Shown: piece after piece, positions 39,425 to 56,398 of the stretch
How the letters are laid out: each line of letters starts with the position of its first letter
How positions within the stretch are numbered: position 1 is the stretch's first letter
Made by a program: the position numbers and the translations under genes
The notes under the pieces: model-generated
Told to the model about the DNA's origin: nothing
The model's input: the letters and a program-made list of their open reading frames with translations, nothing else
Databases searched by the model: none
Assembly (NCBI GenBank): GCA_016188475.1
Contig: JACPHT010000007.1
Span: 80,467 to 144,466 of the forward strand
Reading direction: 5' to 3'
Source: Candidatus Uhrbacteria bacterium
Lineage (GTDB): Bacteria; Patescibacteriota; Patescibacteriia; UBA9934; GWF2-40-263
DNA length: 64,000 nt

Positions 39425-39833
39425 ATAACTGGTTCAAAATTTTTGTCTGCAATGAAAACATTTTTTTCGCATCTTTTGACGTTTGATGATCATATTCAAA
39501 AAGATGCAACAGCCCGTGAACAATCAAAAACGAAATTTCATCTCGAGCTCCTCGCCCTGCTTCCTTTGCCTGTTTTTTTGCTTGCGAATATGAAATAAGA
39601 ATCTCTCCACTATTTTTTTCAAGAGAAAAAGATAGAACGTCTGTTACTGAATCTTTTCCCCTGTAAACACGATTCGCAAAACGGATTGTTTTATTGTTTA
39701 CAAACGCGATTGATGCTTCGTAGTTTTTCGCTTTAACAAATCTTCCAACAACACGCAAAATCTTTTCAAGTGCGACTTGCGGAAACCGTTCCCCACCTTT
39801 AAGCAAAGCTTGATTCAATTCAGCGCGAATCAT
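39411..39833 (-). CDS. ybeY: rRNA maturation endoribonuclease YbeY
   Basis: HGLLHLFEYDH zinc-binding motif. Confidence 0.85.
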   Translation of the reverse strand: MIRAELNQALLKGGERFPQVALEKILRVVGRFVKAKNYEASIAFVNNKTIRFANRVYRGKDSVTDVLSFSLEKNSGEILISYSQAKKQAKEAGRGARDEISFLIVHGLLHLFEYDHQTSKDAKKMFSLQTKILNQLYDKR

Positions 39834-40822
39834 AATACGACTTCTTTCAAGCTATTGATTATCATCTGAAAAGTCTGCACATAATCAACAGTGGTTTTTG
39901 TAGAAACATCGTATTTGAACGATAAAACTTTGGTTCCAATAACTACTATCGCGGATCTCTTATCTTGGGTCGTGTAAAATTCCTTCCCTGTCTTGGTTGT
40001 GGTTTTTACAACATTTTCCTGTCCGCCTTGTTCTTCAATCCAATTTGAAATTGTTTGCGAAAACGCTTCTTGAGTTTGAGAAATAACACTGACAGCAAAA
40101 GTTTCACCAGTTGTAGTAATAATTGAAACTGATAAATTTTCACCGGCTTGTGTTTCCCAAATTGATGGATACATCAACTCAATGTTTGGCTGAATTGTTG
40201 TTCTTGAAACAAAACCGGCTTCGAGCAATGTTCCAGGGGATTTGGCACTCGGGTTGTAAAGATGAAACACTTCGTTACCATCCAAAAATCCATCAAGGTC
40301 AGTGTCTGGAAGATTCGGATTTGTTTTATAAATTATTGTTTCTTCAATATCTGTTAATCCATCTGAATCTGAATCTTTCCCTGGAACAATTTCATTTGTA
40401 AACGGACTTTCAACTGCTGGTTCGGGTTCTGGCTCCGGTGCTGGTATTGGCTCTGGTTCAGGACGCGGTGTTGGTTGTGTTTCTGAAGTTGGCTTGATTT
40501 GACTTTCAGTTTTTGGTTGAGATGTTCGCAAAAGGATATATCCTACAACAATCAAAGCAAGAAGAATTACAGCTCCGGCAATAAGCAATGCTTTTGTTGA
40601 TGACGAAAATTCCTTTTTAACCTGTAATATCGGAACTGATTTTGGAAGTGGTTGAGATGTCGCCGGAGAAATAGGCGACGATGACGGTTTTTGTTGAATT
40701 TTTGGTTCAACAACTTTTGTTTCTTTGCCATGACGATATTGCTCGGGCATCGTAAAAATCCTCGCGTCCGGTATCGCTTTTTTCTGTTCTTGATTTTCTA
40801 TTTTCAATTGTGTTTCCTGCAT
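39830..40822 (-). CDS. membrane-anchored Pro-rich protein with TSP3-like Ca-binding motifs (DSDSDGLTDIEE, DTDLDGFLDGNE)
   Basis: TM helix ALLIAGAVILLALIVVGYIL. PEPEPIPAPEPEPEP linker. D-x-D-x-DG-x-x-D-x-x-E loops. Confidence 0.6.
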   Translation of the reverse strand: MQETQLKIENQEQKKAIPDARIFTMPEQYRHGKETKVVEPKIQQKPSSSPISPATSQPLPKSVPILQVKKEFSSSTKALLIAGAVILLALIVVGYILLRTSQPKTESQIKPTSETQPTPRPEPEPIPAPEPEPEPAVESPFTNEIVPGKDSDSDGLTDIEETIIYKTNPNLPDTDLDGFLDGNEVFHLYNPSAKSPGTLLEAGFVSRTTIQPNIELMYPSIWETQAGENLSVSIITTTGETFAVSVISQTQEAFSQTISNWIEEQGGQENVVKTTTKTGKEFYTTQDKRSAIVVIGTKVLSFKYDVSTKTTVDYVQTFQMIINSLKEVVL

Positions 40823-40867: not shown

Positions 40868-41482
40868 TTAACTTCCTGCTGGAACTTCCAATAACTTCCC
40901 TGGTCCGTTTGGGTCGTATCCGGCTTTCACTTCATTTCCATCCAAAAACCCATCGCCATCTGAATCTGAATTCAAAGGGTTTGTTCCATAAACTTCAAGC
41001 TCTTCACGATCAAACAAAAAGTCTCCGTCAGTATCTGAACTTTTTGGACTTGTGCCAAGTTGAGCTTCTTGCAAATCAGAGAGTCCATCTTTGTCTGTGT
41101 CAACTTCAGGTTGTACAATTTCAGGCGCTGGTTCTGTTTCAATAGCGGATGATGGTTGCTGTGTTTCTGTTTTGGTTGTTTCTTCAGCTCCAGGTTCTTG
41201 TGGAGTTACTGGAGTTCGGGAGCTTAAAATTCGCCATGAAATTAAAAATGCTCCGCCGATTACAACCAAAATCGCGAGAATAATAATTATTGTTTTTATG
41301 TGGCTCCCACTACCGCCTGAAGATTGTTTTTGCAATGGTTCTACAGATGGAGAAACTGATTGAACCACTGGCTGAACTGCCGGTTGAACTGTTTGCTGAG
41401 CAGTAGGCGGAGCCACATGAGGCGCGGCCTCATCTGTTTTTTCAAAAATGTCTTCAGTGGGTTTTTGCAAATCTTCAAACAT
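40868..41482 (-). CDS. paralogous membrane-anchored protein with TSP3-like motifs
   Basis: DTDKDGLSDLQE, DTDGDFLFDREE, DSDGDGFLDGNE; TM helix IIIILAILVVIGGAFLI. Confidence 0.6.
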   Translation of the reverse strand: MFEDLQKPTEDIFEKTDEAAPHVAPPTAQQTVQPAVQPVVQSVSPSVEPLQKQSSGGSGSHIKTIIIILAILVVIGGAFLISWRILSSRTPVTPQEPGAEETTKTETQQPSSAIETEPAPEIVQPEVDTDKDGLSDLQEAQLGTSPKSSDTDGDFLFDREELEVYGTNPLNSDSDGDGFLDGNEVKAGYDPNGPGKLLEVPAGS

Positions 41483-41521: not shown

Positions 41522-42319
41522 TTACTTTAATTTTCCAGCGCCGTTTGGATTATAACCTGCGGCAATTTCTTGGCTGTCACTATATCCATCTCCATCAGTA
41601 TCAGCTTTGTATTGATCAGTGCCGTACAATTTTTCTTGCGTATTATCCAGATCGTCAAAATCCGGATCATCCACCAAAATCCATTCTTCCTTGCACAATA
41701 CAATTCGGTCTTCGTCAATTAATTTATCACAAATCCGTGAATCTTGTTTTTGATTCGCCTCTTTAACAACGATCAAAAGTTCACATTCAGACGGATTTTT
41801 TCCAAGCGAAGCGCAATTTTCCGCTGTGATAGGCTCTAAACCGTAGTGGCATCCTGATCGTTTGTTCTCGTTTTGTATTTTATCACACAACTTCACATTT
41901 TGAGCAGAAACTGCCAGAGCATAATTCACACTGTCCGAGCAAAGTCTTTTCCATTCTTCGTTAACGATATTTTCACAAACCGAAATATCTTTTTTATCAA
42001 CTCCAAGTTCCCAAACGCAAGAGTCGTAACTTTTGTCTGTTAAGCCTTCACAAAACAAAACATTTCCGGTTTGCGAAGCGAGTTTTTGCATTTGTTGTTG
42101 TACGCATTCTTGTTTGTTTACTGCTGATTCACACGTCTGTTCAATCGCGGCGCGCTGATTTTCGACTTGCTTTGTTTGCAATGCCGTGTCATTTCTTCCG
42201 ATGATCAATCGAATCGCTCCAATCACCAAAAACACAGCAATTAAAACTCCGCCAGCGATAATCACCACAGGTTTCCAAGAAATTTGTTTTTGTTCGGATG
42301 GATAGTCTGAGAAAGGCAT
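41522..42319 (-). CDS. paralogous membrane-anchored Cys-rich protein with C-terminal TSP3-like motif
   Basis: Start set at MPFSDYP. The ORF-track N-terminal 42 aa are MITE-encoded. DTDGDGYSDSQE near the C-terminus. Confidence 0.55.
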   Translation of the reverse strand: MPFSDYPSEQKQISWKPVVIIAGGVLIAVFLVIGAIRLIIGRNDTALQTKQVENQRAAIEQTCESAVNKQECVQQQMQKLASQTGNVLFCEGLTDKSYDSCVWELGVDKKDISVCENIVNEEWKRLCSDSVNYALAVSAQNVKLCDKIQNENKRSGCHYGLEPITAENCASLGKNPSECELLIVVKEANQKQDSRICDKLIDEDRIVLCKEEWILVDDPDFDDLDNTQEKLYGTDQYKADTDGDGYSDSQEIAAGYNPNGAGKLK

Positions 42320-42354
42320 AGAAGAAAAGGAGAGGCATTTTCGTTTTTTAATGT

Positions 42355-42422
42355 CCCTTCGACTTCGGCAATTATTGCCTGAGCCTGTCGAAGGCCGTAA
42401 TTGCCTTCGCTCAGGGAATAAT
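42355..42422. mobile_element. MITE-like element family A
   Basis: cccttcgacttcggcaattattgcctgagcctgtcgaaggc...gccttcgctcagggaataat. Confidence 0.75.
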
Positions 42423-42429
42423 ATGCTTA

Positions 42430-45400
42430 TCAAGGCACAGGACAATACTCAAATGTGATATTAGAAAAATTCATTGTTCCGGTTCCGTTGAAGATTGTCT
42501 GAATCGGCATCAAGGTTTGCTTGTTCTGACACGCGAAAGTTTCAGGCAAAGGCAATTCAACATTTTGACCGACAGGAGTAATGGAAGTTTCTGAACTTGA
42601 TTCTGTTCCCTTTGTCGCAGTAACTGTTGTTTTTGATTCCAAAACGGATTCGATTATTTTGTTATACATTCCCTTGATTCCGTCAGCCGTTGTAGCTTGA
42701 TATGCAAAGTTTCCTTCCGTGCAATCATTTTTGTCTGCCATTTCTTTACCTGCACATTTCAAACTAGACAAATGTTCCATGTAGGCAATTTGAGTTGTGT
42801 TATCAGATATAACTGCGGAATAAAAAGTGATGTCGCCTGACTTTATGTGATCAAAAATCATTCCGTCTGCATAACGAGCTTCTGCAATACAAGCCTCTGT
42901 TCCTTCATACGGGACCCATATTCCATCTTCCTTGTTGTAATTTTTTTTGTTGTCCCCAATCATTTTATTACACTTAAGTTTATCATCATTGTCATTTATA
43001 ATTGCTTTTTCTGGAGGATACTTACTGTAATCGCCCAAAGCGTGATTCGCTTCTCCGTCTGCTAATAAAATTACAAACTTTTGATTTTCCGGCGCTGATT
43101 GTTCATCAAGAATCTTTATGGCTTTTTGGATCGCGGAACCAGTCAAAGTCCAACCTCCAAAATTGTCTTTGTATGTGTCAATGATATTTTTAAGTGTTTC
43201 TTTGTTTCCAGGATTGTTCGGCACTAAACTCGTCTCAAGCTCTGGATGAAGCGCAATCACGTCGTCTTGAACATTGTGATTGTAGTCAACACCATATCCG
43301 TAAGTCACCAAACCGATTCTAATTTTTCCGTCAGTGCCTTGGTACGCATCATACAAGTCATCAATGGCTTGTTTTGCCGCTTCTGTCACAATATCAATTC
43401 GACGGTTTGGCGCACTTGCACTTTTTCCGTCTGGACCAAGTTTCATTGTTCCAGTTAAATCCGTCACAAACACAATATCAATGTTCGGTTCAGTCACGTT
43501 TGAATTATCAATGTTTGCCGTAATCTTTGTGCCAACACTGCAAGCAGGCAAAAGCAAAACAGCATTATCAGGCGATAATTTTTCTTTGTTGAAATAACTG
43601 TACAGATCAACACTTGGAAGCGGTTGAGCGCCGGAAAGTTCGCTTTGCACCAAAATTCCTGTTTTCTTCAGAGTGAACGGACACGAGCCAGAACAATCGC
43701 TCGCGCAAACAGGCGCTACGCACTGGCTGTCTGTTCCGCAAACGAATTTGTTTGCAGATGCGTTGTATTCCGCTGGTGTTTTGTTTGGTGGTTGAAGTGT
43801 ACACGGTTTGCCGTTATTAGCACCGCCATTACAAACACCCAAATATTGGCATGTGTATCCAGCACTGCAAGCGCCTGTCGGGCCTAATTTAAGCGCGTCA
43901 GATTTCGAACAATTTCCGGCTTTTACAGGTTCTGCTCCAGTATCATAATTAAAACACCAATACGGCTGATCATTACCATCACAAAATTCATTTCCGTTTT
44001 TAATTCCATCACCGCAATACGAACCGGACAAAGTCTTGTACTGACATTGCCAATTGCAATAATTACATGTGTTATCGTATGAAGCCTCGCAAGGATTCAA
44101 ATCGTTTGGCCCAACATTATCTATTCCGTTGTCGCACGCCTCAACTCCGCTATAAACATATTCATCGCCGCAAAAATTTTTCTTACAACCGTTTGTACAA
44201 CTGTCATTGTTAGATTTATTTCCATCGTCGCATTCTTCAGTTCCTTCTATTTTTCCATTACCGCAAACTTGATCCCCGCCTTGACAGGAAGAAAAACCGG
44301 GCCATGAACAATCGTTTTTACAAACGCGAGTTCGAGTGAGTTCGTATGTGAAATCTGAACATTTCTTGCTGCCACATTGGGCGTTGTTTGAACATGGAGT
44401 TCCGATATCATCTACACCCAAACATTTCGAGTTGTTACATTTTCCGCTTTCGCATTGATTATTATTGCCACACTGTTTCCCAACGTCTTTTGCTTCAACA
44501 CAAACTTTACTGCTTCCGCATGCTTGTTTTTGATTGCCACCACCGCAAGCTCCTGACGGACAATCGCTGTCAGTTTCGCAAGTTGTTTTATTATCAGTAC
44601 AAAGTTTCCCGGCCCATTGTTGTGACCCACCATCACACTCTTCCGGCCCGTTCACAATTTTGTCTCCGCATGAAAGCCCTGGTTGCTTACAATCGTACGT
44701 GCAAGTTTTACCCGGATCGTCACCATATTGCCCATTTGAAGACTCGCATGAATTTATCTTTGCCCAGCTCTGATTTCCAAGCGACGCAAAATTTTCAATT
44801 GAACCGCAATCGCATTGTTCACCACCTGCCAAATATCCATCTCCACACAAAAACGCTTTTGTAAATGTACAATCAGAACCGCAATGTCCGTAAGTTCCGT
44901 TTTGCGCTCCATCATCACATATTTCGCTTCCTTCAAGAACTCCGTTACCGCACGCAAAATCGATCTTAGGAGAACCAGCGGCTTGTGCTTCAGCAACAGT
45001 TTGATAATTTGAACAATCATCTTTACAAGAAACATTCACATATCCGTCAGAAAGATATTCCGCTTTGACTTGTCCTGGCTCGCAGGTTTCATTTTGTCCC
45101 ACAACTCCGTCTCCGCACACAGCTGAAATTCCCCAGCTTGCAGTGTCAGCGCAGAAAAGTGGATTTGAAACAAACCCTTTCGGAACTGCGGCAAGTCCGC
45201 TTAAGTATTCAGCGACAACTGTCACATCGTCTGTGTCAAATTGATCTATTGCAAAATTCCAAGGCGAATCACCGTATTCCAATTGAGTAAACAATTTGTA
45301 TTTTTCTCCGTATTTATTTTGATAACCATAAACATGCGATCCTTTTGGACAAACAAATTTTCCTTGCAATCCATTGAAGCAAGTCAATGGATCGAAGCCC

Positions 45401-48400
45401 TCGCCCTGCGACTTGCAACCTTGCCAGAACTCATCGATCGGATCTTTGGGTAATGTTGAACCAACCGCGTTTGATAAAACCGCGTTCCATGATTCCCATT
45501 TGCTTACACTCATTGCAGGAACATACGTTCCTTGTTGAACTTCAGGATATCCTTCAACACATGATTCAGTTCCAGGACACTGTGAGTCTGTTGAGCAACC
45601 TTGATTTTTTGTAACTGAACAATGTTTGTTTTGTGATCCATATTTGTTCAAAGCGGAAATTGTTGTTGTGATATCTGTCAATCTCTGCATGTCGTTTTGT
45701 AATTTTGATTTGTCATTATCACAAAACGCATTCTTAGCTGACGCGAGTGGACATTCAGCCGCTGACGCTGGTTTATTTTTTGTGATTGTACACTCATCGT
45801 TCTCAAACGTTTCCAAACATTCTCCATCCCAAGCGCAGTTTATAAAATCTCCTTCATCATTTTGTACATAAGAATTTCCGATCTTGCACAAACCAACATT
45901 ACTCACCTCTGTTGTGTTCGCGTTAAATTTCCAGTGATCAAAAATCTGCGCAAAAATTTCTTTGGCATCAGCTCCGGCGTTTGGATTATATGAAACAACG
46001 TAAATGTTTGGATAAATTACATTTCCATTTTTGTTCGCGGCAGTAATATAAGCTGTGTTTCCTGATTGAATAGCTTGATATCCGTCTATTTCTAATTCCT
46101 TGTAAGTTCCAGTAAATTTTTGCGACTCAAACCAAGCTATTGGTGAAAGATAATTTGGATTTTGAAACACGCGCACACCAATCGCGTCAGGAGTGCCTTG
46201 TACTTTGAAGAAAAGTTCTTGTAAAAGTCCGGCAGTCGCGACAGAAGTTACATCAACCGGATCAGCAAGCGAAGGAAGATCATCTGTTGTTCCATCTAAG
46301 CCGCGATCTCTACAATAATAGAAACCAAAGTTAGATGGTTTTGTTGGGTCTGTTTTTTCAATGTATGGAAATCCGAGTGTGGAATTCAAAGCAGGCCATG
46401 GATTTTCGCAAACAAGAGCCGTAACCTCAAGCGATCCCGATGTCTGCTTTCCAGATGTTGTTGGAACATTAAATGTGTCTTTGTTAATTTTCGCAGTCGC
46501 TATTACATGTTCAAGTCCATTATTGCCGACAGATGAAAATTTTGACTTTTCAAGTTTACCGATATCGCCATTTGCAAGATCAACTATATTTTCGGACTTG
46601 CCAGTTGCGTATGAAGAACCCCAATCCCAAGTCCACGAGTAACTTAATGTTGTGTTGATCGGCTCATAAACTCCGAGCCCGTCGCGATATGTTAAAGCCT
46701 GCGCTTCAAACTCGTGCGTTTCATCTTTCTTTGAAAAGAAACCTGAACTTGCTGATTCATATTGTTGTTTATTGACTTTTCCGTTGTCTGCAACACTCAC
46801 TGAATCAAGCAAACATACTTGTGATCCGATTTTGAATTGATTTGTTGTTGAACCGAATTCGCACGTATTTCCAATACACAAACCAACTCCGTTTTCGCTT
46901 AAAACTCCAAAAGGTGTTCCGTCTGAAGTGTTTTTGTCACCGACAATTATTAGCTGATATTCTGAATCTTTTTCCAAAAGATCGTTGTATTCAAGCACGA
47001 TTTTTTGACCGCCGGATATGTCAACGGTTTTGAAAGTCACAGGCGCAAGACATTTATTCCCAGCGGCTGAAACATCTTTTCCAAACAAATTCCAAAATCC
47101 ATTTTTCAAAACACTCCAAATTTTCGCAAACAAGCCTGAAGGCGCTTCTCCGCTTGTTACAAATTGATAGTTCGACGGACAAAGAGACGGGTTGGCATAA
47201 ATGTACTTTCCGTTTTTTGCAAACAGCTCAAGTCTGATATTTGAAATTTCTCCGTTGTCAATCTTTCCATTGTTGTTTTTGTCAACAGCGCCAAATGTTT
47301 TTGGATCCATTTTCTGATCAAACTGAACTGACACTGCTGTGTTTCGACAATATCCCTGATTTCCTGGACCGTTTCCAGACGGCGGTTGATAAGGCGGTTT
47401 CTTCTTCGGACGCACAAAACAACAACTTCCTGATCCGCATCCGAGCTTTGTTGTATCTCCGCACGCCTGATCCGACTCGCACGAACAATCAACTTTCAAA
47501 GTCGCGTCACCTTTCACATTTTCTGCTTCAGCGGTGATAGTCGAAACAGCATAACCTGTTGTTTTATCAACTTCTTTTGGGGCATTGTTGTTGATTTGCG
47601 CCGCGGCATATCCGCCTATCGCAAGCGACTGACCGGCTGATACATCACATTCTTCGCTAGTTTGAATTTTACCATCGCCGCAAAATGACGGAGGGTCATA
47701 TTGCGCTGACGCGCCTTCATTCAAACACTTGGCGTTGCAACCATCGCCGGATTTATTATTGCCGTCATCGCACTCCTCTCCTTTTCCAATCTTGCTATCG
47801 CTACAAAATGACGGGGTTCCGTACTCTAATGAAGCGCCTTCGTCAAGACATTTTTCACTGCATCCGTCTCCTGAAACCGCATTGCCATCATCACAGTCTT
47901 CTCCAGATTCGACTTTTGAATTTCCGCATTTTGAAAAAACATTTTCTTTCGCGATCGCACCTTCAAACAAACATTGGCTTGAACAACCGTCACCGTTTTT
48001 TGTATTTCCGTCATCACAATCTTCACCTCCTGTTTGAGGTGAAAAGTCAACGGTTCCATCTCCACAAGTTGCGCCAACTGAAGACGAACCATTATTTAAA
48101 CATGTCGAGCCGCATCCGTCGCCTGAAACAGTATTCCCGTCATCGCATTGTTCTCCAGCGTCAACAATTTTATTTCCGCAAGTTAAAGACGATCCTTCTT
48201 TCAAACAACTTGAGGAACATCCGTCTCCAGAGTTTGTATTTTTGTCATCGCATTCTTCAGCTTCATTTTTTCCATCTCCGTTGTAATCGACAATTCCATC
48301 TCCGCAAACCGCTTGCGTGTGTTTAATTGTTGCGCCAGCATTCAAGCATTGCGATGTACACCACTCTGGAAGCGACGTTGCAAGTTCGATTGCTCCATTT

Positions 48401-51400
48401 TGCAACATAAACGCCACATCCTGCGCTGTTCCTCCTTGAGCGGCTTTATAATTGTCAGGAGTGTCTTTTGATGTCCACGCGTTCCAAGTGTAACTTGAAT
48501 TCTGTAAAGCCTGTCCGGAAGCGTCGCAATCATCTGGCGCGCCGTAAGTTGTCGCGTTGTATTCTTGTTTTTGTCCGACGTAATTTAATGTTTTCAAATC
48601 TGGAGAAACATTGATTGAATCAATACCGCAACTTATATCAGAATTTTTTGTTTTGAATTTCCACGAAAAATCCGTGCCATAATTCGCGCCAGAATCTTTT
48701 AACGGAACATTGGAAGTTGACTTGATTGAAGAACCATTCAAAACAATTCGATACCATGTGTTCGCGGCCATTACTGAACCTGCTTTATAATCAACAAACA
48801 AAGTTTTGGTTTCTTTGTTGTAAGTAACGTTTTGAATCAAATCTGTTTTTTTAAGCTCATTCGCCTCGCAAATAGAATCTTCACACTCATAAAGCGTTAC
48901 CGCAGAAGCTGCAACAGTTGATGGATCAATATCTGTATTGAAACGCGCCCAAGGCTGTGCGTTCACGCAAGCTGTTGAACAATTTGGGAAAAACGCGTCA
49001 ACTTTTGGATCGCTAAAATCGATTTTCAAATCTCCAGTATCCTTTGGTTTATTTACGGCGTTTGTAACTTCAGCTTTAATCTTTGCAGGATTTCCTTTTG
49101 TCTCTTCTGTTGCTTTAACTTTTGAAGAACACAGTGCAGTGCCAACTGTCGGGTCTTGCACGGTTGCGCCAGGAAAATTTGATGACCAATCGATTGTTTG
49201 TCCATCGCATGAAATTGTGAGACATTGATGCTCTTTAGAAATTAACTGCGATGTGTAACCAACACTTTGATCGTCAACTGTTGCTGTAAAATCTGCTGGT
49301 GAAACATTCACTCCGCCGACTTCGCACAATTCATTTTGACCTGCTGTTCTGAAATCCCAAACATAATCCTTTTCCATGAACGCGCCGCCAACAGCATCAC
49401 TCGCGCGCACTCCGCCCTGACCTCCTTTCACAGTCACTTTGATATAAGCCGCTTGAGGAAGCAATTCCGAAGGTGTCCATGTAAACGCTATTTCGTCCGT
49501 CATTAACGAACCGTCGAGTTTTTGCCATGCTTTACAACTTCCATCAGATTTTTCCTCATTACATTTTTCAACAACAATGTTATCCGGCAATGACGTCTGA
49601 TCCATTTGTTTTGTAAATGCCGCAGTAACAACCGCGTTCAAACAAACCGATGACGAACCTTCCCAGTTTTTCCACGGACTTGGAGAAATTGTTTTATCAT
49701 CGCATGCGACTTTTATTGTTGGAGCTTCTGGAATTAAACCGGTTGAAACGCGATACGCAAAATGTGATTCTTTTGGCTTAAGACTGCAATCAGCTTGATT
49801 TGATTTACACGAACCATCATCGCAACAGAATGTGTTGGTCGGACAAGCAAAATTATTTTGACAATCTCCAACAGCAAAATTTACAGAGTTCGAAGTGTAA
49901 CCGGCTTGAGTTGTTGCGAAAACCGGCCCTGTTTTTGCTTGCGCTGGAACCAAAGCATCGGTCACTTTTGTATTTTCCCAAATGATGTAACCGGCTGATT
50001 GTTTGTCAAAAAATGTAACTGTTCCATCTTTAGTTCCCAAATTTTCTCCATAAGCTGTTACAAGTGTTTCAACAGGACCTGCAACAGGATCAAGTTTACA
50101 AACCGCAGGACCTGGAGCGCCGTCAACAATTACAAAATCAACACCGTTTGAAACCTCACCATCTTGACGTTTTAGCGAAAGTTTATATGCGCCAAAGACA
50201 ATTTGATCTCCAAATTCATTCGCGATTTGAAATTCTTCCGGAACTTTTACGATAACTGATGTGTTGTTCCAAAATTGATTGCCGCATTGCGCTGGAAATT
50301 GCGTGTCTCCAAGAGCCAACTTTCCAAGACCGCTTGTAAAATTCACTTGACCTTTCGATGTTCCAAAATCAGTTCCATAAATTGTCACGTATTGTCCGGC
50401 TGGTCCCCAATTTGGCGCTGATTCGCATTTCCCTCCTCCACACGTGTCGTCTTTCGCGCAGACTTTTCCATTGTTCACTCCACCACTACACGCTTTCCAA
50501 CCAGTTTCGACGTATGAAATGTTTGGTTTGGTTTCTGCTTTTGCGGAATCTAAAACAGCAAACGCAAGTTTGTTCGATCCAACACGAACTGAAACGCATT
50601 TTCCGTCTCCTTCAGCGCAAACTTTATTCGCAGAACAATACGCCAGTGTTTCACTGCACCAAGAAGTCGCGCACGAGTTCCCTGCTCCGCAATCACTATC
50701 TTGCGCACACAATTTTCCAGTTTCCTTTCCAACTGCGTCAATACATCGATAATCTCCGGTGAACGCTTGTGTGCTTACATTGCCAGATGACATGTTTGGC
50801 ACAACAGCCTTAACTTGTGTGTCAAGCCAAGCTGAATATCCAGCTGAAAGAAAATCTTTGAAATAAATGACTGACGACCCTTGCTTTGCTCCAAGTCCAA
50901 GTCCAGAAAAAGTTGTTCCTGTCGCGCTCTCGCCTTTTACAGGATCAACATCGCAAAGTCCCGGACGTTTCACAGCGTTTACATCAAAATCAGACGATAG
51001 CGGACCAAACGCATCGTTTGTTTTATCTTTTTTAACATCAGGTCCGGCTGTTGCAACTTCAATCGGCCCATCTTTTGCTCCAACTGGAAGTTGAACAACA
51101 ATCTCTTTGTCGCTCCATTTTGTTTTTCCATTGCAAGAATAAGCAGAAACACTCTTGCTTTCTTCAGGTTTGGATCCAAGAAATGTTATGTTTCCTCCAA
51201 CAGCGCCAAATCCCAAACCTTTGATTGTTACTAAACTTCCGATAGCGCCATCGCCCGGTGAAACAGAATCAATGCGAGGTTTGCTTACACAAACTTCATT
51301 TTCACACACAAGTCCTGGCGAGCATTCTGCTGTTTGTCCACACGTATCTGCCACACATTTGCCGCAATAAAAAACATTTGTTGGATCACCACCGCAGTTC

Positions 51401-52581
51401 ACTCCTGTTTCACCAAATTCTTCGTCAATCTCTGTATTGTCACAGTTTGCGGCTTTAACAACAGCTGAAATTTTTGTTGCTGTTGCTTTGTTGCCTGCGC
51501 AATCAAACGCAGAAGCCCAAAGAGGATAACTTTTGTTTGTAACGTATCCGATTGTGTCCCATTCAACATTCTCGTCTGTTGAAAAAATGTTTACCGTGTT
51601 GTTTCCAACAAGTTTTTGACTGGTTGACAGATCAAGTCCTGATGAATAAAGCGCTTCATCATCACTTACTGAGTAAAAATCTACACTTGAAACTCCTGTG
51701 TCGTCTTTTGTTTCGGCTTGCAAAATCTGAATCGTTCCAACAATAACGGATTGTCCATTCGTTGGAGTTTTCATGCTGATTGTCGGACCTTTTACATCAA
51801 CTCCATCGCCTGTTGTGAAAGAAAATTCATTCAGATTTCCAAACGTACTAAGTTCTGCGCCACTTGTTGACTTAAGAGCGGAATTGATCTTAAGCTCATA
51901 TTCCGTGTTTGCTGCAAAGCAATGCGATGTTGTATTTGGCGCCGGACAAAAAGCGGCTGGAGTGAATTTGACCACGCTTCCTTTTGTTGCAAAAGTTCCA
52001 TCAACCGCGTTTCCACCTTTTTGTTTGATTGTAATTCCTTCTGAAATTGTTGAAGCATTAACGTTCTTTGAAAAAACAAGTTGGAGCTGAAGATTTCGAA
52101 TAGCACTCGCGCATTCTGTATTAACTGAATTGAGTTTGAACGAGGAAAGTGTCCCGTTGTCTGGATACGAACCTCCGCCTCCGCCTGTCCCTGTTGTAAC
52201 ACCCACTCCTGTTGTTTCAATAAGTTTGCCAATAATAAATTGGACTATTCCAAATGATGCCAAAACAATTATCAGTCCAACAATCGCCTGGCTTAAAATC
52301 TTTTTTGCTGTTTCAAGCCGTTTTGTGTTGCCGGCAGAGGTCATGTATAAAAATCCAGCGTAAACAATCATGGCAACCGCAATTATTCCAACAAAACTTA
52401 TTGCTGTTCTGATCAATCGAGCGATGATGAGCTGAATCGAAGGACCTGTTGCAAATCCGGCGTTTTGCGCGAACTCTTTCAAATCAACTCCTTGAGCAAA
52501 AACAGGAACAGCAACAATGAGCCCAACGCTCACAAGCGCGAGAATAAAACCTGACAGAAATGATTTATATTGATGTTTCAT
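42430..52581 (-). CDS. giant (3,383 aa) surface protein: VirB2/TrbC-pilin-like two-helix N-terminus, Ig-like/IPT regions, 6+ tandem Myxococcus-type cysteine-rich repeats (CGDG..ECDDGN..GDGCS..C), C-terminal vWA domain
   Basis: Uninterrupted 10.15-kb ORF. Repeats CGDGIVDYNGDGKNEAEECDDKNTNSGDGCSSSCL x6. vWA with DLTGT...LTGSAIQ...LLADGEAN. N-terminal LIIARLIRTAISFVGIIAVAMIVYAGFLYMTS. Confidence 0.85.
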   Translation of the reverse strand: MKHQYKSFLSGFILALVSVGLIVAVPVFAQGVDLKEFAQNAGFATGPSIQLIIARLIRTAISFVGIIAVAMIVYAGFLYMTSAGNTKRLETAKKILSQAIVGLIIVLASFGIVQFIIGKLIETTGVGVTTGTGGGGGSYPDNGTLSSFKLNSVNTECASAIRNLQLQLVFSKNVNASTISEGITIKQKGGNAVDGTFATKGSVVKFTPAAFCPAPNTTSHCFAANTEYELKINSALKSTSGAELSTFGNLNEFSFTTGDGVDVKGPTISMKTPTNGQSVIVGTIQILQAETKDDTGVSSVDFYSVSDDEALYSSGLDLSTSQKLVGNNTVNIFSTDENVEWDTIGYVTNKSYPLWASAFDCAGNKATATKISAVVKAANCDNTEIDEEFGETGVNCGGDPTNVFYCGKCVADTCGQTAECSPGLVCENEVCVSKPRIDSVSPGDGAIGSLVTIKGLGFGAVGGNITFLGSKPEESKSVSAYSCNGKTKWSDKEIVVQLPVGAKDGPIEVATAGPDVKKDKTNDAFGPLSSDFDVNAVKRPGLCDVDPVKGESATGTTFSGLGLGAKQGSSVIYFKDFLSAGYSAWLDTQVKAVVPNMSSGNVSTQAFTGDYRCIDAVGKETGKLCAQDSDCGAGNSCATSWCSETLAYCSANKVCAEGDGKCVSVRVGSNKLAFAVLDSAKAETKPNISYVETGWKACSGGVNNGKVCAKDDTCGGGKCESAPNWGPAGQYVTIYGTDFGTSKGQVNFTSGLGKLALGDTQFPAQCGNQFWNNTSVIVKVPEEFQIANEFGDQIVFGAYKLSLKRQDGEVSNGVDFVIVDGAPGPAVCKLDPVAGPVETLVTAYGENLGTKDGTVTFFDKQSAGYIIWENTKVTDALVPAQAKTGPVFATTQAGYTSNSVNFAVGDCQNNFACPTNTFCCDDGSCKSNQADCSLKPKESHFAYRVSTGLIPEAPTIKVACDDKTISPSPWKNWEGSSSVCLNAVVTAAFTKQMDQTSLPDNIVVEKCNEEKSDGSCKAWQKLDGSLMTDEIAFTWTPSELLPQAAYIKVTVKGGQGGVRASDAVGGAFMEKDYVWDFRTAGQNELCEVGGVNVSPADFTATVDDQSVGYTSQLISKEHQCLTISCDGQTIDWSSNFPGATVQDPTVGTALCSSKVKATEETKGNPAKIKAEVTNAVNKPKDTGDLKIDFSDPKVDAFFPNCSTACVNAQPWARFNTDIDPSTVAASAVTLYECEDSICEANELKKTDLIQNVTYNKETKTLFVDYKAGSVMAANTWYRIVLNGSSIKSTSNVPLKDSGANYGTDFSWKFKTKNSDISCGIDSINVSPDLKTLNYVGQKQEYNATTYGAPDDCDASGQALQNSSYTWNAWTSKDTPDNYKAAQGGTAQDVAFMLQNGAIELATSLPEWCTSQCLNAGATIKHTQAVCGDGIVDYNGDGKNEAEECDDKNTNSGDGCSSSCLKEGSSLTCGNKIVDAGEQCDDGNTVSGDGCGSTCLNNGSSSVGATCGDGTVDFSPQTGGEDCDDGNTKNGDGCSSQCLFEGAIAKENVFSKCGNSKVESGEDCDDGNAVSGDGCSEKCLDEGASLEYGTPSFCSDSKIGKGEECDDGNNKSGDGCNAKCLNEGASAQYDPPSFCGDGKIQTSEECDVSAGQSLAIGGYAAAQINNNAPKEVDKTTGYAVSTITAEAENVKGDATLKVDCSCESDQACGDTTKLGCGSGSCCFVRPKKKPPYQPPSGNGPGNQGYCRNTAVSVQFDQKMDPKTFGAVDKNNNGKIDNGEISNIRLELFAKNGKYIYANPSLCPSNYQFVTSGEAPSGLFAKIWSVLKNGFWNLFGKDVSAAGNKCLAPVTFKTVDISGGQKIVLEYNDLLEKDSEYQLIIVGDKNTSDGTPFGVLSENGVGLCIGNTCEFGSTTNQFKIGSQVCLLDSVSVADNGKVNKQQYESASSGFFSKKDETHEFEAQALTYRDGLGVYEPINTTLSYSWTWDWGSSYATGKSENIVDLANGDIGKLEKSKFSSVGNNGLEHVIATAKINKDTFNVPTTSGKQTSGSLEVTALVCENPWPALNSTLGFPYIEKTDPTKPSNFGFYYCRDRGLDGTTDDLPSLADPVDVTSVATAGLLQELFFKVQGTPDAIGVRVFQNPNYLSPIAWFESQKFTGTYKELEIDGYQAIQSGNTAYITAANKNGNVIYPNIYVVSYNPNAGADAKEIFAQIFDHWKFNANTTEVSNVGLCKIGNSYVQNDEGDFINCAWDGECLETFENDECTITKNKPASAAECPLASAKNAFCDNDKSKLQNDMQRLTDITTTISALNKYGSQNKHCSVTKNQGCSTDSQCPGTESCVEGYPEVQQGTYVPAMSVSKWESWNAVLSNAVGSTLPKDPIDEFWQGCKSQGEGFDPLTCFNGLQGKFVCPKGSHVYGYQNKYGEKYKLFTQLEYGDSPWNFAIDQFDTDDVTVVAEYLSGLAAVPKGFVSNPLFCADTASWGISAVCGDGVVGQNETCEPGQVKAEYLSDGYVNVSCKDDCSNYQTVAEAQAAGSPKIDFACGNGVLEGSEICDDGAQNGTYGHCGSDCTFTKAFLCGDGYLAGGEQCDCGSIENFASLGNQSWAKINSCESSNGQYGDDPGKTCTYDCKQPGLSCGDKIVNGPEECDGGSQQWAGKLCTDNKTTCETDSDCPSGACGGGNQKQACGSSKVCVEAKDVGKQCGNNNQCESGKCNNSKCLGVDDIGTPCSNNAQCGSKKCSDFTYELTRTRVCKNDCSWPGFSSCQGGDQVCGNGKIEGTEECDDGNKSNNDSCTNGCKKNFCGDEYVYSGVEACDNGIDNVGPNDLNPCEASYDNTCNYCNWQCQYKTLSGSYCGDGIKNGNEFCDGNDQPYWCFNYDTGAEPVKAGNCSKSDALKLGPTGACSAGYTCQYLGVCNGGANNGKPCTLQPPNKTPAEYNASANKFVCGTDSQCVAPVCASDCSGSCPFTLKKTGILVQSELSGAQPLPSVDLYSYFNKEKLSPDNAVLLLPACSVGTKITANIDNSNVTEPNIDIVFVTDLTGTMKLGPDGKSASAPNRRIDIVTEAAKQAIDDLYDAYQGTDGKIRIGLVTYGYGVDYNHNVQDDVIALHPELETSLVPNNPGNKETLKNIIDTYKDNFGGWTLTGSAIQKAIKILDEQSAPENQKFVILLADGEANHALGDYSKYPPEKAIINDNDDKLKCNKMIGDNKKNYNKEDGIWVPYEGTEACIAEARYADGMIFDHIKSGDITFYSAVISDNTTQIAYMEHLSSLKCAGKEMADKNDCTEGNFAYQATTADGIKGMYNKIIESVLESKTTVTATKGTESSSETSITPVGQNVELPLPETFACQNKQTLMPIQTIFNGTGTMNFSNITFEYCPVP

Positions 52582-52590
52582 GCATTTTAT

Positions 52591-52663
52591 CCCTTCGACT
52601 CCGGCAAAATTATTGCCTGAGCCTGTCGAAGGCTTTAATTTTGCCTTCGCTCAGGGAATAAAA
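52591..52663. mobile_element. MITE-like element family A
   Basis: Same architecture as 42355-42422. Confidence 0.75.
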
Positions 52664-52665
52664 TT

Positions 52666-54471
52666 TCACTTTACATTCCCCGGCAATGTGCCCGGTTCAT
52701 ACAATGTCTTACACGCGACAGCAGACGGCGATCCATTACAACAATACGGTTTACTTGAATTTGTTCCGTCACACGCGCCGCCAACTTGCATTGAAGGATA
52801 CATACAAATTTGATACGCGCTTTTTAGACCGTTTGTTACAACAGGATAATAATCATATCCGCCTTCAGCATTGCTTATAAAAGCAGGATGTCCAATTAGC
52901 ACTTTGGTTGTTTTTGCGTCAACATTATCTTCCTTATTTGATGAAAACCACATTGAATAAAGTGGATCCGGCCAAACAGAAACATTTGAACTATTCACAG
53001 TCGAGCCTTTCAGAAGTGTGCTGAATGCAATTTCAAGCGGTGCGTTTTGATCAATCTCTTGACCTCCAATTTCAGGTTTTAACGAAACAATTTTTGGAAC
53101 AGTGTCATTGATCGCGTCTGTTGTGTTGAACGACCAAGAGTAATTATCATTCAAAGCATTGTTTGCGCAAACTGCCAAATCTTTTTCTGATCCACAAGCT
53201 TTCCCATCTCCATTTCCATCAAGCGAATTTCCTGACGCGTCAGTCAATCCATCATATGAAACTCCAATAAGTTGCGCTTGCGGGGGATTGGAATTATCTA
53301 GTGTCGCCGCCTTGCCAGTGACACTCAAATCAGCGGTTGCTGGCAAGCAATAAATCACATCACCGCAGGGATCTTTTGAACACGCGTCAGTGCTTGTAAA
53401 CCCAACTGTTTTGTATCCATTGCTAATTTCATATGTTCCCTGAACATTTCCGGCAACATCTTTTTGAGTAATCGCGATGTTTGTAAATAATGGATTTTTT
53501 TCATCAATATAAGAACCTGTTGAAGACACTGGGTCCATTGCTTCATTGAATGTCATTTCTACAGTCACATTACGCGGTTCTTCTGACGAATTATTTGGAA
53601 TCACAGAAACAACTTTTGGCGGAGTGAGATCGATTTCTGTTGAAACCTCAAACGTCCATCCATATCCGGAGGAATAAGCTCCAACAAAAGCATTTGAGCC
53701 GTTTGCTTTTTTGATTCCTGGTTGAAGCGCGACAGTATAATTCGTGTCCGATGTTGGATTGCCAAGAAGATCAACGGGATCAAAAACGTAAATTGTATTC
53801 TGTTCGTTTGTCACAACTTTTACAGCATCCGTCCCGAGTTTTTTGTCTTTTCCTTTTGCTGTTTCAAAAATATAGACATTCGTGTTGTTAAGTCCGCTCT
53901 CGCCAGAAATGATGGATTTTGGATCTACGGCTTCTTTGAATGTAACGAAAATTTTTGTATTGCGAGGAATTTCAACCGCGTTGCGGGGAGGATAATGGCT
54001 TTCGACAATTCCTGCGCCAAGCGCGCCGGCAAGCGGTTCTTTATATTTTTCAATTACAGCCTTTGAAACAATCTGACCGGAAGTCGCGCCCAAAATCGCA
54101 TTTATGACAAACAACGCGATCGCGTATGAAGAAAAAATAATTAAAACTCCGATTGTTGCCTGAGTGATGATTTTTTTCGCCTTTTCCGTTTTTCCTGCTT
54201 CGCCTTGCGAAGTCATGTACAAAAATCCGGCGTACAGAACAAGAAGAACAAAAATGATTCCTAAAATTCCAAGAAAAGCGCGAATTAAACGCGCGATTAT
54301 TAGGATAATGTTTGTTTGTGGCAAACCAGATGCTTCGGCAGAAGTTTGAAGAAAATCCGTTTGCGCAAAAACAGGATGAGCAAGTCCGAAGAAAACAAAA
54401 ACGCACAGCACGCCAAAGCCTGCCGCGTAAACGGCAAATGAACGCAAGTATGTCCGACTATTATCGGTCAT
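52666..54471 (-). CDS. 601-aa surface protein, paralog of the giant protein N-terminus (pilin-like two-helix module + Ig-like domains)
   Basis: N-terminal IILIIARLIRAFLGILGIIFVLLVLYAGFLYMTSQGEAGKTEKAKKI parallels the giant protein. Confidence 0.8.
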   Translation of the reverse strand: MTDNSRTYLRSFAVYAAGFGVLCVFVFFGLAHPVFAQTDFLQTSAEASGLPQTNIILIIARLIRAFLGILGIIFVLLVLYAGFLYMTSQGEAGKTEKAKKIITQATIGVLIIFSSYAIALFVINAILGATSGQIVSKAVIEKYKEPLAGALGAGIVESHYPPRNAVEIPRNTKIFVTFKEAVDPKSIISGESGLNNTNVYIFETAKGKDKKLGTDAVKVVTNEQNTIYVFDPVDLLGNPTSDTNYTVALQPGIKKANGSNAFVGAYSSGYGWTFEVSTEIDLTPPKVVSVIPNNSSEEPRNVTVEMTFNEAMDPVSSTGSYIDEKNPLFTNIAITQKDVAGNVQGTYEISNGYKTVGFTSTDACSKDPCGDVIYCLPATADLSVTGKAATLDNSNPPQAQLIGVSYDGLTDASGNSLDGNGDGKACGSEKDLAVCANNALNDNYSWSFNTTDAINDTVPKIVSLKPEIGGQEIDQNAPLEIAFSTLLKGSTVNSSNVSVWPDPLYSMWFSSNKEDNVDAKTTKVLIGHPAFISNAEGGYDYYPVVTNGLKSAYQICMYPSMQVGGACDGTNSSKPYCCNGSPSAVACKTLYEPGTLPGNVK

Positions 54472-54510: not shown

Positions 54511-55551
54511 TTACAAAGAGATAATAGGAAGAGTGTGGATAGACGTTAACTTTTGTTTCAATTTTTTTGCGTTTCCATGACCTAACAGTCCAAAATAAGA
54601 TTGAAACGTTTCTTTTGTTGGATGCGACTCAATTCTCTGTAACATCCGTCGTCTTGTTACTGTTCGTAATGTTCGATGATCCGTAAAATGAACCCAACCG
54701 AGAAAATCAACGCCGGAGGTAAAAGTCTTCAAAAAAATCTTGTTTGGATGAAGTGTTAAATGAAGATCAAACAGTAAAAAGGAACGTATTGCTGGAATCA
54801 AAGACTTGAGAGATGTTTTGTCATCAGAGAGAAAAACAAAATCATCAGCATAACGAACATAGTGTTTGATATGAAGTTTGTGTTTCACAAATTGATCAAA
54901 CTGATTCATATAGATATTTGAAAAAAGTTGTGATGTGAGATTGCCAAGCGGAAGTCCGATATTCCGCTTATTTTTTGTTTCAAAACTTCCGATGATTTTT
55001 TCAAGAAGCCATATGATGTTTTTGTCTGGGATATACTCTCCAAGGATACGAATCAAAATTCTGTGATCAATACTCCAAAAAAATTGTTTAATATCGCATT
55101 TCAAGACCCAACACGTTCGAGTGTGATTCTGACTAACTTGATAAGCAAAAGCCCGAAATCTGTCGACCGCTTTATGTACTCCCTTCTCGTTTCGACATGA
55201 AAATGAATCGCTTATGAATGTCTTATCGAAAAACGAATACAATATGCGATATAATGCCCGATGTAATGTGCGATCTCGTACTGACGCTTTGTGAATTAAA
55301 CGACGTTTTGGATCTGTGATGACAAATGATTCGTATTTTGAATGTCTGTATGTCTTGTTTTTCAAATCTCTATGTAAATCCAGAAGATTATCCATCAAAT
55401 ACAACTCGAACTCCTGTATGTCTTTTCTTGACCGCTTACCAACAACAAATTCACTCCAAGCACAAAGTAAATTCTCTATCGATATTATCTCTTCAAATGT
55501 ATGATCGAACAAAATTTTGGACACGCAACTAAGTGTACCCCCCCCCCCCAA
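54511..55551 (-). CDS. diversity-generating retroelement (DGR) reverse transcriptase
   Basis: RT motifs with the DGR-diagnostic LPLGNLTSQLFSNIYMN (I/LGxxxSQ) and VRYADDFVFL. N-terminal LFDHTFEEIISIENLLCAWSEFVVGKRSR. ORF-track start is TTG inside a C12 tract; the GTG at 55524 is an alternative. Confidence 0.85.
   Translation of the reverse strand: MGGGGTLSCVSKILFDHTFEEIISIENLLCAWSEFVVGKRSRKDIQEFELYLMDNLLDLHRDLKNKTYRHSKYESFVITDPKRRLIHKASVRDRTLHRALYRILYSFFDKTFISDSFSCRNEKGVHKAVDRFRAFAYQVSQNHTRTCWVLKCDIKQFFWSIDHRILIRILGEYIPDKNIIWLLEKIIGSFETKNKRNIGLPLGNLTSQLFSNIYMNQFDQFVKHKLHIKHYVRYADDFVFLSDDKTSLKSLIPAIRSFLLFDLHLTLHPNKIFLKTFTSGVDFLGWVHFTDHRTLRTVTRRRMLQRIESHPTKETFQSYFGLLGHGNAKKLKQKLTSIHTLPIISL
55538..55549. 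repeat. C12 homopolymer (G12 on the minus strand) at the 5' end of the RT ORF, in the RT/avd divergent region
   Basis: cccccccccccc read directly from the sequence. Confidence 0.9.
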
Positions 55552-55593
55552 CGATTTTTACCGGTTTTAAGTAAAGTCAAGGAGTCGTACCTT

Positions 55594-55920
55594 TTGTGGT
55601 ACAAATTTTATCAGGACTTACCCAAAGTACATCGTCATTCTCTCGGTCAGCGCATTGATACTTTATTTGTTGAAGTGATTGAAGCGATATCGGCCGCCAG
55701 TTTTCTCTCACCGGCGGAGAAACATCCGTATGTTCGTCTCGCGATCAAAAAAGCGGACACCTTGCGCGTACTTCTTTTGGTGCTTTGGGAAACGAAATCT
55801 CTTGATGACAAAAAATACATTGCTCTTTCCGTAAAGTTGGACGAAGCCGGAAAAATGCTTGGCGGTTGGAACGGCCAGCTCGCAAAACAAAACTCTCCAG
55901 CGAAAGCCGGAGAGAAATGA
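55594..55920 (+). CDS. candidate DGR accessory variability determinant (Avd-like four-helix-bundle protein), divergent from the RT
   Basis: TTG start 9 nt after a perfect SD aaggag. LPKVHRHSLGQRIDTLFVEVIEAI resembles the bAvd / four-helix-bundle family (FPKEE.YGLTSQIRRA.VSIPSNI). Basic, 109 aa. The opposite-strand orientation is unusual. Confidence 0.45.
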   Translation: MWYKFYQDLPKVHRHSLGQRIDTLFVEVIEAISAASFLSPAEKHPYVRLAIKKADTLRVLLLVLWETKSLDDKKYIALSVKLDEAGKMLGGWNGQLAKQNSPAKAGEK

Positions 55921-55926
55921 AGAGAG

Positions 55927-56344: not shown

Positions 56345-56359
56345 AGGGCTAAGTTCAAA

Positions 56360-56373: not shown

Positions 56374-56398
56374 GAGTATCTTAGTGTTGAGAACTGAC

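Follow-up and report, generated by a model that had tools for sequence, protein, structure and literature searches.

The stretch of DNA analyzed in this study (hereafter "the window") comprises 64,000 nt of contig JACPHT010000007.1, from assembly GCA_016188475.1 of a Candidatus Uhrbacteria bacterium. Its minus strand carries a giant gene for a surface protein of 3,383 amino-acid residues (aa). An initial annotation of this DNA had described a single 10.15-kb open reading frame (ORF) occupying about 16% of the window. The ORF was indeed found to be free of internal stop codons, and it accounts for 15.9% of the window. The gene and the parts of its product, as assigned from hidden Markov models (HMMs), hydropathy, alignments, motif searches and structural modeling, are as follows; MIDAS denotes the metal-ion-dependent adhesion site.

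42430..52581, minus strand: giant gene, encoding the 3,383-aa surface protein, with an ATG start and the stop codon included
52495..52581, minus strand: signal peptide (aa 1-29), from hydropathy and alignments
52213..52434, minus strand: VirB2-like/T4SS_pilin two-helix hairpin (aa 50-123), from a match to PF18895 and hydropathy
48649..52095, minus strand: Ig-like stalk (aa 163-1311), with Big_5, Big_7 and TIG matches and short Cys-knot inserts
47602..48306, minus strand: tandem Cys-rich acidic repeats of the TIGR02232/DUF4215 type (aa 1426-1660), from HMMs and a motif
45265..46425, minus strand: family-specific central region (aa 2053-2439), without a Pfam family
43882..45114, minus strand: dispersed, degenerate Cys-rich repeats (aa ~2490-2900), from the motif CG[DN]G...E.CD
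42433..43659, minus strand: C-terminal head (aa 2975-3383), a β-sandwich into which a vWA domain is inserted, with a Y-C-P motif at the end
43447..43461, minus strand: predicted MIDAS, D3041-L-T-G-T3045, with T3145 and D3175 further on

A very long, repeat-rich protein from a metagenome could be an artefact, i.e. an assembly collapse, a chimera of repeats, or a pseudogene that happens still to be open; frame continuity had been raised as a point to confirm in the initial annotation. It is supported by several lines of evidence. The identical giant protein, together with the same upstream genes, is encoded in the independent Logan assembly of SRR12113419. About 45 full-length orthologs (3,200-3,600 aa, 30-78% identity) are collinear with the protein and have the same domain order. 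Tandem Repeats Finder detected no DNA-level tandem repeats over the ORF, and the units of its Cys-rich repeats are only 68-73% identical to each other in DNA, so sequences prone to collapse are lacking. The cysteines are also strongly conserved (see below). Assembly collapse and pseudogene status can thus both be dismissed; an artefactual origin is effectively refuted, and we give it next to no credence. The protein is already deposited, though uncharacterised: NCBI nr contains an identical sequence from a 168-kb contig, annotated as 'Ig-like domain-containing protein [Candidatus Uhrbacteria bacterium]'.

The extent of the family was assessed with a profile of the family-specific central block, built from a tight alignment (A4) and run against GTDB species representatives. 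The block was found at 74 loci on 74 different assemblies, so that the protein is conserved in at least 74 related species, and the informative record titles among them named Uhrbacteria, Patescibacteria or Parcubacteria. Many records of metagenome-assembled genomes that carry the giant gene (L008, L011, L024-L028, L059 and others) are titled 'uncultured Gammaproteobacteria bacterium'. These titles, one of which belongs to a complete chromosome of 1.0 Mb (OZ246408.1), almost certainly stand as placeholders for Patescibacteria genomes or mislabel them.

In the family alignment, conservation is fairly uniform along the 3,383 aa. The N-terminal hairpin is among the most conserved parts, and a block in the central region (aa 2051-2200) is conserved as strongly; the least conserved part (aa ~3100-3250) lies within the vWA domain. 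The ectodomain is acidic (pI 4.5) and has a mass of about 345 kDa. Cys positions are 87% conserved across the family, compared to 39% for other residues, and 116 of the 162 cysteines of the giant protein are at least 80% conserved. This pattern is that expected for an extracellular, disulfide-stabilised fibre.

Hydropathy analysis revealed only three hydrophobic segments in the whole protein (aa 5-34, 49-84 and 92-123). The first belongs to the signal peptide, for which cleavage by signal peptidase I is predicted at VFA↓QG; the 601-aa product of the adjacent upstream gene, a paralog, has the same predicted site (PVFAQ). The other two form the hairpin: a first transmembrane (TM) helix at aa ~49-84, a loop (TSAGNTKRLETAKKI) with a net charge of +3, and a second TM helix at aa ~92-123, followed by a Gly-rich linker. 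Since the loop is basic, the positive-inside rule would place it in the cytoplasm and everything after aa 123 outside the cell.

The resemblance of this N-terminus to VirB2/TrbC pilins, proposed in the initial annotation, was borne out by a match to the T4SS_pilin family (PF18895; gathering cutoff, 26.6 bits) at aa 50-116. The score depends on the length scanned: 36.1 bits for aa 1-135, 31.5 bits for aa 1-400, and 25.5 bits, just below the cutoff, for the full-length protein, such that the N-terminus qualifies for the family when scanned by itself. PF18895 was matched by all 11 of the aligned relatives, and TrbC/VirB2 (PF04956) by four of the 11 but not by the giant protein itself, in which a weak match to the NCBIfam model Mbov_0395 (pilin-like) was also seen. 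A sequence profile search of the PDB with the N-terminal module returned no relative of solved structure at E≤10. No prepilin motif of the type G↓[FM]T[LI][IL]E occurs in aa 1-60, nor was there a match to the Pfam family N_methyl. The giant protein thus has the signal peptide and the two hydrophobic helices with a short basic loop that characterize such pilins, but it is not a small stand-alone subunit of ~100-150 aa; the module makes up 3% of the 3,383 aa.

The Ig-like/IPT-like stretches that had been noted were confirmed as Pfam domains. Big_5 was matched in three stretches, including aa 163-257 and 1192-1311, Big_7 in one (aa 266-304), and TIG in three to four (aa 435-509, 723-816 and others). 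In the segment that follows, TIGR02232 scored 155.2 bits (cutoff, 20.8) and DUF4215 scored 50.2 bits on the full protein and 94 bits on the segment alone (cutoff, 27). Both models matched six stretches, and these above-cutoff tandem copies place the array in the TIGR02232/DUF4215 family. The earlier count of six tandem repeats of about 37 aa therefore stands by HMM; the motif recovers five complete repeats and part of a sixth, and the spacing ranges from 35 to 43 aa. The further dispersed copies that had been mentioned correspond to about seven degenerate ones at aa 2498-2880. The stretch between the tandem repeats and the central region is probably Ig-like.

The central region was modeled with good scores (aa 2040-2500; predicted local distance difference test (pLDDT) 83, predicted TM-score (pTM) 0.86). 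In the model, the first sub-domain is weakly PsbP/Mog1-like and the second consists of a long helix and a β-sheet. Foldseek returned only weak PsbP/Mog1-like matches (E 2.6e-3, TM-score 0.38-0.44), and neither sequence profile searches of the PDB nor Pfam scans gave a significant match. When other architectures containing the central block were sought, only short hypothetical proteins or unnamed fragments were found. A type IV pilin or pseudopilin head had been suspected at aa 2283-2439 from the likeness of a motif ('RD..RL.D...YP...LPxDP...Y.Y...Y.L..LE'). This assignment was not supported and was withdrawn: when 18 family members were scanned against Pfam, nothing beyond weak Cys-knot matches emerged, the PDB profile search gave nothing significant, and no pilins were among the Foldseek matches.

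The C-terminal vWA domain with its MIDAS, also part of the initial annotation, was recovered as a match to VWA (PF00092) at aa 3035-3180. The head (aa 2975-3383, 409 aa) was modeled with AlphaFold2 using an alignment of 18 orthologs (pLDDT 85, pTM 0.82). In the model, the vWA α/β domain is set between the halves of a β-sandwich, which are formed by β-strands in model residues 3-51 and 342-407; the modeled head thus has the insertion of a vWA fold in a β-sandwich that is known from pilus-tip adhesins. The best PDB matches in Foldseek were SpaC (E 1.5e-12), PitA, PilB of Streptococcus sanguinis (E 2e-10), GBS104, RrgA and Mfa5, with E values from 1.5e-12 to 1.4e-9; integrin β I-like domains ranked after them (E about 1e-8). 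The family consensus of the MIDAS is DxSxS...T...D, of which the giant protein carries the conservative variant DxTxT...T3145...D3175. Both Ser positions are occupied by S or T across the family, and the two Asp positions by D in 40/49 and 36/49 sequences, so that the predicted motif agrees with that of the vWA pilus-tip adhesins. The variable stretch at aa ~3100-3250 includes a low-confidence insert of the head model; in RrgA and PilB, "arms" for ligand specificity flank the MIDAS at the equivalent position (PMC8179133).

The C-terminus (...NITFEYCPVP) contains neither an LPXTG motif nor a C-terminal TM segment, and the protein accordingly does not qualify as a sortase substrate. The Y-C-P motif (aa 3379-3381, window positions 42433-42441) is invariant in 18/18 sequences, and there are other invariant cysteines in the terminal β-sandwich. 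Together they could represent a conserved terminal disulfide or a recognition motif.

These features were compared with those of known systems. PilB of S. sanguinis, a modular type IV pilin (PMC8179133, PDB 7b7p), likewise joins an N-terminal pilin-type carrier to a grafted vWA/MIDAS module; it is a direct structural match to the head and follows the same logic of a carrier plus an exchangeable effector. It differs in being a class III prepilin with an α1 helix, whereas the giant protein has a two-helix VirB2/T4SS_pilin hairpin and a Sec-type signal peptide. Moreover, the graft in PilB is about 300 aa rather than about 3,250 aa, and no filament machinery is encoded near the giant gene. The tip adhesins of sortase-assembled pili (RrgA, GBS104, SpaC and PitA) and of the type V pilus (Mfa5) likewise place a vWA/MIDAS domain, set in a β-sandwich, at the far end of their fibre. 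Unlike them, the giant protein has no LPXTG, pilin motif or C-terminal anchor, its polarity is reversed (N-terminal anchor, C-terminal head), and one polypeptide makes up its entire fibre, where theirs is polymerised from subunits. The integrin β-subunit also resembles the head in that a vWA-like, MIDAS-bearing βI domain is inserted in a β-sandwich (the hybrid domain). At 10-13% identity this is an analogous or very distant fold, and the giant protein has no α-subunit partner and no evidence of the ADMIDAS or SyMBS metal sites.

A long Ig-like stalk with a vWA domain at the end far from the anchor is also the layout of fibrillar adhesins (PMC8286594, PMC9210967), in which vWA and stalk domains are a common grammar (PMC8286594). 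By the operational class of Monzon et al. (PMC8286594), i.e. stalk domains, an adhesive domain and an anchor, the predicted architecture of the giant protein (Big_5/Big_7/TIG, VWA and a TM hairpin) falls within the fibrillar adhesins, with a non-canonical anchor. A pilin-like hairpin is not among the anchors searched in those surveys (PMC8286594, PMC9210967), and the giant protein additionally has Cys-rich repeats of the Myxococcus type and a large central domain specific to its family. The giant proteins of Vampirococcus lugosii (PMC8080830), at 1.4-4.2 kaa, are predicted to be located in the membrane, have adhesion-type domains and were proposed to form surface fibres for attachment to the host. 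They belong to another lineage (Absconditabacteria) and have other domain sets, and neither a pilin-type N-terminus nor a conserved operon was reported for them (PMC8080830).

On this evidence, the giant protein is probably a core, chromosomal giant fibrillar adhesin of the Uhrbacteria with an unusual pilin-type root. Its domain architecture and the modeled head place it most readily among the vWA adhesins of the fibrillar or tip type, with a VirB2-like root, its function being a prediction. The adhesin candidate put forward in the initial annotation has thus gained strength from the head model, the matches to pilus-tip adhesins (E 1e-12 to 1e-9) and the conserved MIDAS. A role in host attachment or an episymbiotic lifestyle may be envisaged.

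A mechanism can be proposed as follows. The protein would be exported by the Sec pathway via its cleavable-type signal peptide, after which the hairpin would hold the fibre in the membrane, with both hairpin ends and the 3,250-aa remainder facing outward. From the membrane, the order would be the proximal Ig-like stalk, the Cys-rich repeats, the central domain and finally the distal vWA/MIDAS head, which the long stalk would project past the cell wall. There, the head may bind a protein ligand carried by a partner cell or a surface, with a divalent cation held in the MIDAS contacting an acidic residue of that ligand. The hairpin ranks among the most conserved segments and for this reason probably also mediates a specific lateral association, i.e. 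a specific assembly instead of mere anchoring. Its likely partners are the 601-aa paralog, which has the same module, and possibly three proteins with Ca-binding thrombospondin-type-3 (TSP3) repeats encoded in the same operon.

Several points weigh against this interpretation. The adhesin function is predicted, and the Uhrbacteria have no known ligand or host. Host-range adhesins usually vary in copy number and location; the giant gene evolves slowly and keeps its syntenic place beside ftsA/ftsZ as a core gene, which is atypical of them. A plain anchor would not need conservation such as that of the hairpin, so a role of the hairpin beyond anchoring is likely. For the central 400 aa, including the block conserved like the hairpin, no function can be assigned. 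Finally, the MIDAS reads DxTxT instead of DxSxS, and metal binding by it is a prediction only.

The giant gene lies in an operon on the minus strand, the other members of which are as follows.

52666..54471, minus strand: upstream partner, the 601-aa paralog, with a signal peptide, a T4SS_pilin-like hairpin and two Big_5 domains
41522..42319, minus strand: downstream partner 1, a Cys-rich single-pass membrane protein of 265 aa with a C-terminal Ca-binding TSP3 repeat
40868..41482, minus strand: downstream partner 2, a single-pass membrane protein of 204 aa with three TSP3 repeats
39830..40822, minus strand: downstream partner 3, a single-pass membrane protein of 330 aa with a weak TSP3 repeat

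The 601-aa paralog aligned with aa 1-275 of the giant protein in BLASTP (E 2e-23), and its gene is separated from the giant gene by an 84-nt spacer. The true start of downstream partner 1 is the ATG at 42319. After the TSP3 genes, the window continues with ybeY, dgkA, ftsA, ftsZ, nrdR, htrA and pyk. At orthologous loci, the order is lepB-hisS-x-yqeY-[~610 aa pilin-Ig]-[giant]-[TSP3 proteins]-ybeY-dgkA-ftsA, where x is a small gene. This order is kept in L002, L003 and L004, the giant proteins of which are 53%, 45% and 28% identical, respectively, to that of the window. A search of the 64-kb window, and of ±10 kb around the giant gene in these three loci, found no genes for VirB4, VirB6 or VirD4; likewise, the gene is not encoded with machinery of a type IV secretion system (T4SS; VirB4, VirB6, VirB3/PrgI) in the window or in L002-L004. 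Given the 74 loci, the kept synteny and the lack of T4SS genes in the regions searched, the giant gene is a conserved core gene of the chromosome and belongs neither to a T4SS island nor to a mobile element.

The same context lends some color to a different function, namely that the protein is a structural component of the envelope: a surface coat, a fibre for cell-cell cohesion, or a wall-spanning scaffold linked to growth and division, in which the head would bind self (the TSP3 proteins or the wall). The gene is a conserved core gene, its operon always stands beside ybeY-dgkA-ftsA-ftsZ, including at the locus with 28% identity, Ca-binding TSP3 repeats are present in three membrane proteins of the operon, and conservation is spread fairly evenly over the 3,383 aa. 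However, synteny with division genes may simply reflect kept gene order in a small genome. A distal vWA-in-β-sandwich head with a variable insert is typical of adhesins for foreign ligands, and related proteins carry a distal carbohydrate-binding module, with no vWA match reported. We therefore consider a structural role of this kind improbable.

The pilin-like module was traced more widely with phmmer, using aa 30-130 as the query against 1.84 billion representative proteins. At E≤1e-3 there were 32,998 matching proteins, of which 3,334 reached E≤1e-10. Among the best 150 matches, 13 were single small proteins, 99 had 2-8 or more fused modules, and 33 had one N-terminal module followed by 600-4,600 further residues. 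Two of the giants, P0198 and P0131, keep the pilin-Big_5-TIG stem and have a CBM_4_9 carbohydrate-binding domain, with no vWA match reported; their heads fit a design of a carrier plus an exchangeable head. Some relatives of pilin size (e.g. P0085) look like truncated gene calls of giant orthologs. A limited search of the literature found no description of giant pilin-module fusions. The fused 'pilin arrays' reach 17 HMMER-matched stretches in one protein of 1,775 aa; such arrays are hard to reconcile with classical VirB2 polymerisation and may bear on the role of the module in Patescibacteria.

In Patescibacteria, VirB2-like pilins are widespread and pilin arrays are recognised as well; in Southlakia, these pilins are essential; no adhesin of the PrgB kind was detected, and none has been identified for the T4SSs (PMC12102498, PMC10633639, PMC12857230). 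These pilins (PF18895/PF04956; PMC12102498, PMC10633639) belong to the same Pfam family as the module of the giant protein and have a signal peptide and two hydrophobic helices; they differ in being about 100-150 aa long and usually arranged in arrays near virB4, whereas the giant gene has a housekeeping neighbourhood. A second interpretation starts from this kinship. The VirB2-like module would truly serve polymerisation, and the giant protein and the 601-aa paralog would be built, probably at the tip, into a VirB2-type pilus of a Patescibacteria T4SS that is encoded elsewhere in the genome, much as PilB displays its vWA module on the type IV pili of S. sanguinis. The N-terminal module is a bona fide and highly conserved member of PF18895, it is common to two adjacent genes, and its closest relatives include pilin-sized proteins and fused arrays; the head, in turn, resembles pilus-tip adhesins, including the modular pilin PilB (PMC8179133). 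The conservation of the hairpin, which suggests a specific assembly, keeps this interpretation alive. On the other hand, the T4SS genes sought are missing from the window and from the surroundings of the gene in the three orthologous loci, and a Patescibacteria T4SS pilus has never yet been visualised. A 345-kDa extension would be tolerable only at the tip or at very low stoichiometry, and part of the apparently pilin-sized relatives are the truncated calls just mentioned. Incorporation into a pilus is, in our estimation, rather unlikely, albeit worth keeping in view. A broader proposition, that the Patescibacteria have made the conjugative (VirB2-type) pilin a general carrier of very large modular adhesins, with the giant protein and its paralog as the first 'modular T4SS pilins', is offered with equal reserve; the T4SS would assemble them into a pilus or at its tip, and the 3,250-aa extension would end in the vWA head.

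Two neighbouring features might suggest that the giant gene is the cargo of a mobile element or the target of a mutagenic one. In the initial annotation, the gene was described as flanked on both sides by copies of a miniature inverted-repeat transposable element (MITE), and a complete diversity-generating retroelement (DGR) is situated 2-4.5 kb upstream of it. Copies of a palindromic repeat do lie on both sides, as follows.

52584..52664, no strand assigned: palindromic repeat between the 601-aa gene and the giant gene, inside the operon (core 52608-52640)
42345..42425, no strand assigned: palindromic repeat just past the stop codon of the giant gene (core 42370-42402)

The 17-nt core of these repeats (CCTGAGCCTGTCGAAGG) was matched 28 times in the window with at most three mismatches, compared to 0.08 matches expected. 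The core copies usually occur as inverted pairs in intergenic spacers, and most intergenic spacers of the window contain them. The members of a pair are often about 45 nt apart and are predicted to form very stable hairpins (z-scores down to -7) that lack a U-run. The copies beside the giant gene are predicted to form stable hairpins (z-scores -4 to -7) and have no U-run after them. The repeats are REP-like elements that are found genome-wide, and flanking by them is not specific to the giant gene; the flanks described earlier are real, but with 28 cores in the window they carry no specific meaning. Neither element-specific flanks nor a variable location, as expected of a MITE-bounded mobile unit, was observed. 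In the copy at 52584-52664, the 3' arm GAAGGGA lies 10-16 nt before the ATG of the giant gene; in two cases, the 3' arm (GAAGGGA) of a repeat is at the expected Shine-Dalgarno position of the next gene. Further examples of the repeat are located at 3599-3750, 8779-8840, 11948-12000, 17839-17901, 58032-58146 and 61391-61451.

The DGR lies at 54511-57016, between yqeY and the 601-aa gene, and contains the following parts, including its template repeat (TR) and variable repeat (VR).

54511-55551, minus strand: DGR reverse transcriptase (RVT_1)
55501-55920, plus strand: bAvd-like accessory gene (39.3 bits vs. a cutoff of 40, E 1e-9)
55919-56052: TR
56391-56524: VR, at the 3' end of the 204-aa gene
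56402-57016, minus strand: DGR target gene, 204 aa, no Pfam family

In the aligned core of TR and VR, all mismatches (14/14) are replacements of a TR adenine by another base. No VR was found in the giant gene (42430-52581), which therefore does not qualify as a DGR target, and the sole TR-like copy is that at 56391-56524. Targeting of the giant gene or of the 601-aa gene by the DGR was rejected because the only VR is in the 204-aa gene. The DGR is absent from L002, L003 and L004, in which the synteny of the giant gene is kept; it was thus inserted in this lineage between yqeY and the operon, and it is a neighbour rather than part of the giant-gene feature. For this window, both the mobile-cargo and the DGR-target explanations are refuted, and we retain practically no belief in either.

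Some further observations were made on the DGR. The GC content is mixed within the cassette (target gene 62%, TR 59%, reverse transcriptase gene 36%; genome about 41%). A 12-nt G homopolymer (C12 on the plus strand) is located at 55538-55549, in the short region of the starts of the divergent reverse transcriptase and avd genes. The tract might be prone to slippage and control the DGR by phase variation, or it might be a weak spot of sequencing or assembly. The start of the reverse transcriptase is ambiguous (346 aa from a TTG vs. 294 aa in the Logan gene call).

Elsewhere in the window, a tmRNA gene (22286-22676; Rfam, 141 bits) with the tag peptide ANNVIAKIKNALRVPTFAPVLA is ordinary and confirms that the region is chromosomal. 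A block at 6604-15560 is GC-rich (52-56% vs. about 41% elsewhere), with overlapping ORFs on both strands. Among its products are several Cys-rich proteins bearing 'putative metal-binding' repeats of the MopE type (PF11617). This block may be a horizontally acquired or compositionally distinct island of surface proteins; the MopE motif is also present in P0198, the distant giant pilin-module protein. A weak second tRNA match (61818-61880; Rfam, 35 bits) directly follows tRNA-Val (61719-61795), and ARAGORN made no call there. Since this match overlaps the start of the LytR_cpsA_psr gene (61822-63588), the GTG start predicted for that gene is probably incorrect, unless the match represents a remnant of a tRNA.

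The wider use of the module has a consequence for surveys of Patescibacteria. In the search described above, as many as 33 of the 150 best matches, with lengths of 700-4,700 aa, are rooted by it, so that a survey in which each PF18895 match is scored as a 'pilin' may lump giant surface proteins together with pilins. If the modular-pilin proposition were true, it would supply the adhesin not yet identified for the essential, functionally unexplained T4SSs of Patescibacteria, and the VirB2-type pilus would join the sortase, type IV and type V pili as another that independently mounted a vWA adhesin at its tip.

How members of the candidate phyla radiation (Patescibacteria) attach to their partners is a central question, and outside the Saccharibacteria almost nothing is known of it. 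The N-terminal module ties the giant-protein family to the VirB2-like pilins, which are essential, in a role not known, in the only genetically tractable patescibacterium. With the giant protein read as a fibrillar adhesin, the family provides a concrete, conserved candidate for an attachment structure of the Uhrbacteria, with a defined, testable site (the MIDAS residues D3041, T3043, T3045, T3145 and D3175) and defined partners (the 601-aa paralog and the three TSP3 proteins).

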